DNA of 64,000 bases from assembly GCA_046328015.1 (NCBI GenBank), contig JAXLXH010000001.1, positions 3,173,135 to 3,237,134 of the forward strand, read 5' to 3'. A program made the translations under genes and the position numbers. How positions within the stretch are numbered: position 1 is the stretch's first letter; each line of letters opens with the position of its first letter. A model generated the notes under the pieces. The model had not been told where the DNA came from and did no database searches. It saw only the letters and a list, made by a program, of their open reading frames with translations. This stretch comes from Candidatus Sericytochromatia bacterium. GTDB taxonomy: Bacteria; Cyanobacteriota; Sericytochromatia; UBA7694; JACMQJ01. Shown one piece after another: positions 51,683-52,561 of this stretch.

Positions 51683-52561
51683 TTATGATTTACTTGGTAA
51701 AGCTTCAATAGATTCTAATATTTCTCTTGTAATAGCTTCTCTTTTGAAAAGATCCTCCATTCTATTTGGAGTATCAATATTTAAAGCGAAAAAAACAGCT
51801 CCTTCTTGCCATTCAACCCATCCAACCCACCATCCAAAGCGACCTTCCCAGCCTGTTTTTGCTCTGAGTATCCAATTACGACCCGCTTCATTAATCATAA
51901 TATCTTTTAATAAGCATTGATGCTCTACACTAAAAGGTAATTCATTTTTATATAATTTTTTAAGAAAAGCTATTTGTTCATAAGCCGAAATTGCTAGATT
52001 ACCATCTACCCAATAATTACCTTTAGTAGTTGAAGGATCTTGATTACCATAGTTTATTTTTTTTAAATACTCTTTAGCTTTTTTTTCACCAATTTTTTTA
52101 GCAAATATTTCATAAACCCATATAGTAGAATTACGCATAGCCAAACGAAGAGTTTGATCTTGGTTATGTCCAGAAAAACTTCTTTTAACCCCATCCCATT
52201 TAAAAACTTGAAACTCATCTTTAACAGCTCCAGAATCTAGAGCAAAAAGAGTATGTGGGATTTTATATGTAGATGCAGGTGAAAAACGTTTTATAGCTCT
52301 TTCATTATTAAAAACCAATATATTAGGTACTTTTTTACGTTCATCATCAATAACAATTGTTCCTACAGCTTGAAATTTATCAAAAAATTTTTTCCAATCC
52401 AAACGTTCTTGTTTATTAAATGATTCTACTTTAATTCCCATTTTGTTAGAATCAAGTACTTTTTTTTCTTCTGTATAAGCATTAGGTGAAAAAAATAAAG
52501 TGCATAAAAATATAGTAATAAATTTTTTTTTCATGAGCTTTCCTTTTTTAATACAAAACAA
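51683..52561 (-). CDS. class D (OXA-type) beta-lactamase homologue
   Basis: Signal peptide; S-x-x-K as PASTYKIP, YGN in INYGNQD, KTG in AKTGWEG, Trp-rich WWVGWVEW. Confidence 0.7.
   Translation of the reverse strand: MFCIKKGKLMKKKFITIFLCTLFFSPNAYTEEKKVLDSNKMGIKVESFNKQERLDWKKFFDKFQAVGTIVIDDERKKVPNILVFNNERAIKRFSPASTYKIPHTLFALDSGAVKDEFQVFKWDGVKRSFSGHNQDQTLRLAMRNSTIWVYEIFAKKIGEKKAKEYLKKINYGNQDPSTTKGNYWVDGNLAISAYEQIAFLKKLYKNELPFSVEHQCLLKDIMINEAGRNWILRAKTGWEGRFGWWVGWVEWQEGAVFFALNIDTPNRMEDLFKREAITREILESIEALPSKS

Follow-up and report, generated by a model that had tools for sequence, protein, structure and literature searches.

OXA-2 is a class D beta-lactamase that is carried as a class 1 integron cassette and is represented by solved structures (1K38, 6XJ3 from Klebsiella quasipneumoniae). 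The enzyme has a narrow-spectrum, oxacillinase-like profile, and members of the clinical OXA-2 group share at least 80% identity with one another (PMC4790369). The related OXA-46/OXA-119 and OXA-732 families (3IF6 for OXA-46) belong to plasmids or integrons of Pseudomonas and Aeromonas. To our knowledge, every known clinical member of the OXA-2-like clade is an integron cassette; the literature searched for a progenitor of these cassettes yielded no report. Here, an OXA-2-like gene, referred to as bla, was analyzed in a 64,000-nucleotide (nt) stretch of DNA from a bacterium labeled Candidatus Sericytochromatia (assembly GCA_046328015.1, contig JAXLXH010000001.1 of 3.55 Mb with locus tags U0457_, positions 3,173,135 to 3,237,134). 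This whole stretch is termed the window, and its guanine-plus-cytosine (GC) content is 24%. We consider it likely that the product of bla is a periplasmic serine beta-lactamase of Ambler class D, from the environmental OXA-2-like clade, and that the gene was acquired long ago, has become adapted to its host and is not mobile now. Literature searches on Sericytochromatia with beta-lactamase and on sample SRR1027651 returned nothing useful.

The gene and the elements within it are listed below. Residue numbering follows the 283-amino-acid (aa) precursor. The clade comparison set held 152 relatives; motif counts were made partly over 155 sequences, and invariance was scored in an alignment of 32 homologues.

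51683..52534 (stop codon included), minus strand: bla, coding sequence of the OXA-2-like class D beta-lactamase, 283-aa precursor (open reading frame, profile match and homologue start)
52475..52534, minus strand: putative Sec signal peptide, residues 1 to about 20, MKKKFITIFLCTLFFSPNAY (inspection of the translation)
52262..52273, minus strand: motif I, S88-T-Y-K91; S88 and K91 invariant in the 32 aligned homologues
52121..52129, minus strand: motif II, S136-T-I138 (S-x-V/I); STI in 17 of 155 sequences, S136 invariant
52043..52051, minus strand: Y162-G-N164; YGN in 153 of 155 sequences
52010..52012, minus strand: W175 in YWVDG; invariant column
51818..51859, minus strand: K226-T-G228-W through W235-W-V-G-W239, the beta5 strand with KTG and the Trp-rich segment
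52535..52561, minus strand: TTG-start extension of nine extra codons, holding AAGGAAAG, with the TTG upstream of this Shine-Dalgarno-like motif

The product of bla was recognized by the NCBIfam hidden Markov model NF012161 (bla_class_D_main) with a score of 286.5 bits against a cutoff of 250, and profile positions 1 to 235 of 236 were covered. Pfam detected only a generic transpeptidase domain in the protein. The best matches among solved structures in the Protein Data Bank were OXA-2 (1K38, 6XJ3) and OXA-46 (3IF6), with E values of 1e-122 to 1e-125, and relatives of OXA-48 and OXA-10 were far behind. The match to OXA-2, at 1e-125, lies far outside what chance would give. Over a core of 239 residues, the protein shared 74.5% identity with OXA-2 and 73.9% with OXA-46. 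Among sequences from outside the host species, a metagenomic protein (P0004) came closest, with 77.4% core identity; a second relative (P0008) had 75.7%.

The preliminary description of this locus had reported STYK, YGN, KTG and a Trp-rich C terminus in that order, and all of these elements were found, together with S136-T-I138 and W175. On alignment to OXA reference sequences, both the serine nucleophile (S88) and the carboxylatable lysine (K91) were present. Residues K226, T227, G228, W229, W235, W236, V237 and G238 were all invariant in the homologue alignment, and all catalytic motifs were conserved across the 152 relatives. W175 aligns with the invariant class D tryptophan that hydrogen-bonds the lysine carbamate, and we take its role to be that of W154 in OXA-10. 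The same description had also pointed to STYK in place of the usual STFK. This substitution is correct but not distinctive, since tyrosine occupies the third position of motif I in 23 of the 152 relatives (15% of the clade). In a neighbor-joining (NJ) tree of 112 sequences, obtained by de-duplication of 155 sequences at 90%, the window protein groups with a mostly-STYK sub-clade. The literature reports found for STYK concern class A enzymes only.

The AlphaFold (AF2) model of the protein could be superposed on OXA-2 (1K38) with a template modeling (TM) score of 0.94 (target-normalized) and a root mean square deviation of 1.7 Å over 238 columns, and OXA-48 structures gave TM scores of about 0.91. 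The model thus predicts the class D (DD-peptidase-like) fold. The class D (OXA-type) assignment originally proposed for this gene has strong support from the curated profile, the motifs, the identity to OXA-2 and the predicted fold.

Within class D, the protein scored below the cutoffs of the OXA-2 family model NF000267 (443.9 bits against 590), the OXA-46 family model NF033104 (438.9 against 600), the OXA-732 family model NF040805 (436.5 against 585) and the OXA-20 family model NF052298 (408.3 against 585). Its full-length identity to OXA-21, an allele of the OXA-2 family, was 66%, and it falls outside the clinical OXA-2 group as delimited by identity of at least 80%. Because its scores lie below all four family cutoffs, the bla product is best placed, from its sequence, as an unnamed member of the wider environmental OXA-2-like clade.

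The gene model was also revisited. The preliminary description had given a protein of 292 aa, without a strand, and an open reading frame (ORF) does occupy exactly 51683..52561 of the minus strand, with 292 aa when counted from TTG. The span therefore stands, but the ATG at 52534, which gives 283 aa, is the likelier start. A Shine-Dalgarno-like motif, AAGGAAAG, lies at 52538-52545, 3 nt 5' of this ATG, and the TTG is further upstream than the motif. A 98% identical homologue from an independent assembly (P0001) was called from the equivalent ATG with 283 aa, and in the alignment other homologues also begin at this position with a signal-peptide-like N terminus. Because the Shine-Dalgarno-like motif precedes the ATG and homologues start at the same position, 51683..52534 was taken as the gene; positions 52535..52561 are probably 5' untranslated region rather than coding. 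GenBank holds the same gene as MFN8673146.1, already labeled "class D beta-lactamase", with a start at the internal Met32 and a length of 252 aa. The signal peptide is therefore lost from the public gene model, and the ATG at 52534 with its Shine-Dalgarno-like motif appears to be the better start.

On inspection, the N terminus restored by this start, MKKKFITIFLCTLFFSPNAY, resembles a signal peptide, with three lysines ahead of a hydrophobic segment of about 12 residues; it aligns with the signal peptides of homologues. A low-complexity linker, about 20 residues long and absent from OXA-2, comes after the putative signal peptide. Residues 1-36 of the structural model are unstructured, with predicted local distance difference test (pLDDT) values below 50, and four of the five aa differences from a second strain (L001, the Logan assembly of SRR1027651) fall within residues 1-42.

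By analogy with characterized class D enzymes, the precursor would be exported through Sec and, after cleavage of the signal peptide, act as a periplasmic enzyme. Ser88, like the nucleophilic serine in OXA-2 and OXA-10, would attack the beta-lactam carbonyl. Lys91 is predicted to be carboxylated on its side-chain nitrogen by CO2, to be kept in place by Trp175 within a hydrophobic pocket (Ile138, Tyr90) and, in this form, to serve as the general base for both acylation and deacylation, and the substrate would be bound and oriented by Ser136, Tyr162-Gly-Asn and Lys226-Thr-Gly. The most likely profile is a narrow-spectrum penicillinase/oxacillinase one. The bacterium itself is environmental and uncultured, and any relevance to resistance, which the preliminary description had raised, would be potential only.

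The composition of bla was that of its surroundings. The GC content at third codon positions (GC3) was 0.127, compared with 0.111 ± 0.031 across the 61 ORFs of the window. In 36 related loci, GC3 ranged from 0.35 to 0.93, and each gene tracked the GC content of its own flanks. The AT bias extends into the protein sequence. The fraction of Phe, Tyr, Met, Ile, Asn and Lys (FYMINK) was 0.343 in the bla protein, compared with a clade mean of 0.254 ± 0.021 and a clade maximum of 0.310; relative to OXA-2, 23 FYMINK residues were gained and 3 were lost. In strain L001, bla, the neighboring OmpA gene and genes of 171 aa and 355 aa were collinear with the window at 98.5% nucleotide identity. Collectively, these sequence data point to bla being a long-resident, compositionally assimilated chromosomal gene rather than a currently mobile cassette.

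The housekeeping gene ProS of the window (5474-7225) was used as a comparison for the origin of bla. Relatives of ProS were found at 77%, 70% and 67-70% identity, and outside the host's own lineage identity did not exceed 57%. The best 120 ProS matches included no Cyanobacteriota or Sericytochromatia names, and the named matches, all at or below 57%, were from candidate phyla radiation (CPR) phyla and Clostridium. By comparison, the bla protein shares 72-77% identity with enzymes from Pseudomonadota and other phyla, above the level of ProS outside the host lineage. Beyond the host species, its nearest homologues reach 77% at most and belong to genomes with 44-69% GC. In a groundwater assembly (L047; GC 0.25), the closest relative whose sequence spans the syntenic position, BtpA is 85% identical to that of the window, and homology stops exactly at the BtpA stop codon (window position 48183). 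No gene from DUF302 to the gene array upstream of bla was found in the next 9.9 kb of this assembly. Because the cross-phylum identity of bla exceeds that of ProS, the OmpA neighbor is foreign-looking and L047 is without the whole segment, bla was likely acquired horizontally, long ago.

An ancestral gene of the host lineage that was inherited vertically and never acquired horizontally would also show host-like codon and amino acid composition and a stable context in two strains, and OXA-2-like relatives do lie on large chromosomal contigs of matching GC. Set against this are the comparison with ProS, the missing segment in L047 and the OmpA neighbor, which is 63-68% identical to proteins of Bacteroidota. 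We therefore regard strictly vertical descent as unlikely, and old horizontal acquisition followed by adaptation to the host as the better account of bla.

Family membership, motif conservation, the fold, an intact ORF, a ribosome-binding site and conservation in two strains were established for bla itself. Several points nevertheless weigh against the account given here. Export, lysine carboxylation, hydrolysis and spectrum are carried over from class D enzymology (OXA-10, OXA-2 and OXA-48). Only two residues depart from those conserved in at least 90% of the 152 relatives, S131L and P243Q (beta5-beta6 turn), and both appear unusual for the clade. Confidence in the structural model is moderate, with a mean pLDDT of 75 and values under 50 near the nucleophile (residues 87-89); an alignment of 32 sequences only is the probable cause. 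The NJ tree is without support values. For the old horizontal transfer, a single syntenic relative was available, and the host lineage is sparsely sampled. Between the window and L001, the mature domain differs by 3 synonymous and 1 nonsynonymous changes, counts that are too small for a selection test. The candidate promoter of bla (listed below) is weak: it matches 9 of 12 positions, and the region holds 12 such sites compared with 8.5 ± 2.3 by chance, so that it is no better than chance in AT-rich DNA.

A gene array that varies between strains adjoins bla, which sits at its conserved edge. The array (52803-58089 and 60939-61928, minus strand) consists of genes of 284-375 aa with 15-20% GC that are tightly packed or overlapping. 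It had been described as a paralogue array adjoining bla, and the genes are indeed extremely AT-rich and of similar size, but the term is loose: pairwise similarity is barely detectable (BLASTP E values of 0.04-0.05), and Pfam gives faint beta-propeller matches only. The accompanying view that bla sits inside an accessory block holds in part. The segment is not syntenic in the nearest relative, and the two strains have different versions of the array; with respect to the breakpoint, however, bla falls on the conserved side.

This breakpoint is at 52581, 47 nt upstream of the bla ATG, where L001 departs from the window. Beyond it, L001 carries a partial copy of D2, a 72-nt repeat found upstream of several array genes (57141-57212, 60848-60919 and 62191-62262; also L001:1-44 and L127:1896-1950). 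A second contig from the same sample as L001 (L127) carries the array gene par5 at 96% identity and ends in D2; over 21 nt inside D2, the end of L127 and the start of L001 are identical. Upstream of par5, L127 has a 340-aa gene that is absent from the window. Counterparts of par5, a tetratricopeptide repeat (TPR) gene and a 437-aa gene were present in Logan assemblies, and no counterpart of par1, par3 or par4 was found in them. These findings suggest a D2-mediated insertion or deletion of about 4.6 kb, comprising par1-par4, between strains; they are not proof of it, D2 being multi-copy.

In OXA-48-type enzymes, the beta5-beta6 loop tunes the spectrum. On the deep, AT-adapted OXA-2 branch represented by bla, in a host lineage with hardly any sampled genomes, S131L and P243Q could in principle give a noncanonical substrate profile, and D2 recombination 47 nt upstream could rewire bla expression between strains through a promoter swap. 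This combination is speculative, and we hold it to be quite improbable.

It had further been proposed that bla may be mobile. A recently acquired, currently mobile resistance determinant, in the form of an integron cassette, a transposon or island cargo, would fit with the cassette- or plasmid-borne state of the closest named relatives, OXA-2, OXA-46 and OXA-732, with an IS4-family transposase gene 7.5 kb away that has further copies in the genome, with a tyrosine recombinase gene at 62356..63204 and with the variation of the adjacent array between strains. However, the GC3 and amino acid composition of bla fully match those of the host and stand out as extreme in the clade. The stop codons of bla and the convergent OmpA gene are a mere 9 bp apart, leaving no room for an attC site downstream of bla, and the adjacent genes, which abut or overlap, have no attC-sized spacers. 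The recombinase, about 10 kb from bla, scored 103 bits against an integron-integrase cutoff of 265, and Xer models scored higher. An integron cassette was rejected on the lack of attC space and the Xer-like recombinase. No insertion sequence (IS) flanks bla. A 41-nt inverted repeat (50578-50618 / 52774-52814) brackets OmpA and bla and was rejected as transposon ends, since 35% of composition-preserving block shuffles reach the same score. In a plasmid search, relatives of bla reached 66-68% full-length identity and none reached 80%, and the flanks matched no plasmid. The strain breakpoint is upstream of bla, which lies in the conserved part. The proposed mobility was thus not borne out, and there is very little likelihood that bla is a mobile determinant at present.

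Finally, a nonhydrolytic penicillin-binding or sensor protein, or an inactive relic, can be dismissed as highly improbable: the C-terminal sensor domain of BlaR1/MecR1 does fold like a class D enzyme, with motif I in the form S-T-Y-K, and the window protein has STYK and a partial match to the NCBIfam BlaR1 model (profile positions 347-581 of 585 only), but its score of 164.9 bits is far under the cutoff of 400, on which a BlaR1-type sensor was rejected, the 283-aa protein is without a membrane (transmembrane) or zinc-metalloprotease domain and is far closer to hydrolases, with 74.5% identity to OXA-2, STYK occurs in 15% of the OXA-2-like clade, and the ORF is intact, with conserved catalytic columns and one aa change between the mature domains of the two strains.

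The class D beta-lactamase gene is flanked by the following features.

50654..51673, plus strand: OmpA-family peptidoglycan-binding outer-membrane protein (Pfam OmpA, E value 3.6e-24), convergent with bla
52667..52719, minus strand: two-tier hairpin, preceded by an A-run and followed by a T-run (-16.2 kcal/mol, z = -3.06, U-rich tail)
52561..52588, minus strand: sigma-70-like promoter candidate, TTGATA-16 nt-AAAAAT, about 27 nt 5' of the ATG (weak evidence)

The position of bla between an OmpA gene and a terminator-like repeat, as first described, was confirmed. Outside the host species, the best matches of the OmpA-family protein were from Bacteroidota (Chitinophagaceae, Ferruginibacter), at 63-68% identity over the full length. 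Such a Bacteroidota-like OmpA is unexpected in a metagenome-assembled genome (MAG) labeled Sericytochromatia and reflects either a second old horizontal acquisition or an unreliable taxonomic label.

The hairpin belongs to a repeat family with copies at 7388-7434, 15890-15936 and 52670-52716, that is, 3 copies in the window compared with 0 expected by chance. The element is conserved over about 75 nt (for example 52651-52725), and every copy is 3' of the end of a gene. The outer stem is formed by AAAAACACAC/GTGTGTTTTT and the inner stem by TTCCGTA/TACGGAA, flanked by the A-run and the T-run. The consensus structure has 18 pairs and no covariation, for which the copies are too few to provide a test. 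Rfam gave no match, either for the hairpin repeat or for the region at 48-64 kb. The family is probably a repetitive extragenic palindromic (REP)-like bidirectional terminator, and the copy at 52667..52719 is probably an intrinsic terminator for the gene upstream of it (52803..53879) and would insulate bla. If the hairpin terminates this array gene, bla would therefore use its own promoter. The -35 part of the promoter candidate lies beyond the strain breakpoint at 52581.

Other features of the window were recorded. A 300-nt direct duplication (56874-57173 and 60581-60880; 97% identical) comprises the 5' end of an array gene and its upstream region, and the copy at 60581-60880 appears to be a truncated gene remnant abutting a DUF952 gene. 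This DUF952 gene (60263-60610, plus strand) has a second copy of at least 90% identity elsewhere on the same contig (MFN8672758.1). The IS4-family transposase gene (43001-44170, minus strand) is intact and scored 405 bits with NCBIfam. Another contig of this MAG has annotated fragments of it with at least 90% identity; at full length it was found in Logan assemblies only, and it is missing from the NCBI annotation of the source contig. Genes at 1047-3884 (minus strand), 14248-15828 (plus strand), 41693-42958 (plus strand) and 40449-41189 (minus strand) encode between them an SNF2-family helicase with partial similarity to ZorD and DrmD, a 526-aa protein with a C-terminal IscB-like HNH segment, a two-HKD phospholipase D-like protein and a C39-like peptidase. 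These are possible defense or accessory genes.

The OXA-2-like clade is old and is spread over many phyla as chromosomal genes, and bla adds one data point to this distribution. To judge from its sequence, with 74.5% identity, bla can clearly be discounted as the progenitor of clinical OXA-2. Its product belongs to a well-known enzyme family, of which it is an ordinary environmental representative, already recognized by automated annotation; nothing indicates an emerging mobile resistance threat, and the practical importance of the gene is modest. Its compositional drift is extreme, with a GC3 of 13% and one third of residues in the FYMINK class, and all catalytic residues were kept; the gene therefore offers a naturally occurring test of how much sequence change class D enzymes tolerate. 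The D2-repeat array, the REP-like terminator family and the Bacteroidota-like OmpA in an ultra-low-GC genome are more unusual than the enzyme itself.

Compared with OXA-2, the window protein has SxxK, SxV/I, YGN, KTG and WWVGW at the same positions, and the likeness extends to the DNA level, at which the two genes align with 70.3% identity over 714 nt. It differs in having STYK instead of STFK and STI instead of STV, in S131L and P243Q and in the longer linker after the signal peptide, and its gene is AT-rich at third codon positions, chromosomal and without attC. The closest full-length plasmid relative is OXA-732, at 68.2%, and in the NJ tree the window protein falls in a different sub-clade from OXA-2 and OXA-46. 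Its nearest relatives are environmental OXA-2-like enzymes, namely P0004, P0008 and those of Limnobacter, Shewanella, Thauera, Synechocystis, Casimicrobium, Verrucomicrobiota and Phycisphaerae. Like bla, the genes for these enzymes lie on chromosomal contigs and match the GC content of their contigs. Unlike these relatives, the window protein is on a long branch of the NJ tree, with its variant from the second strain as its only companion, and in GC3 as in FYMINK content no other member comes close to it in adaptation to AT.

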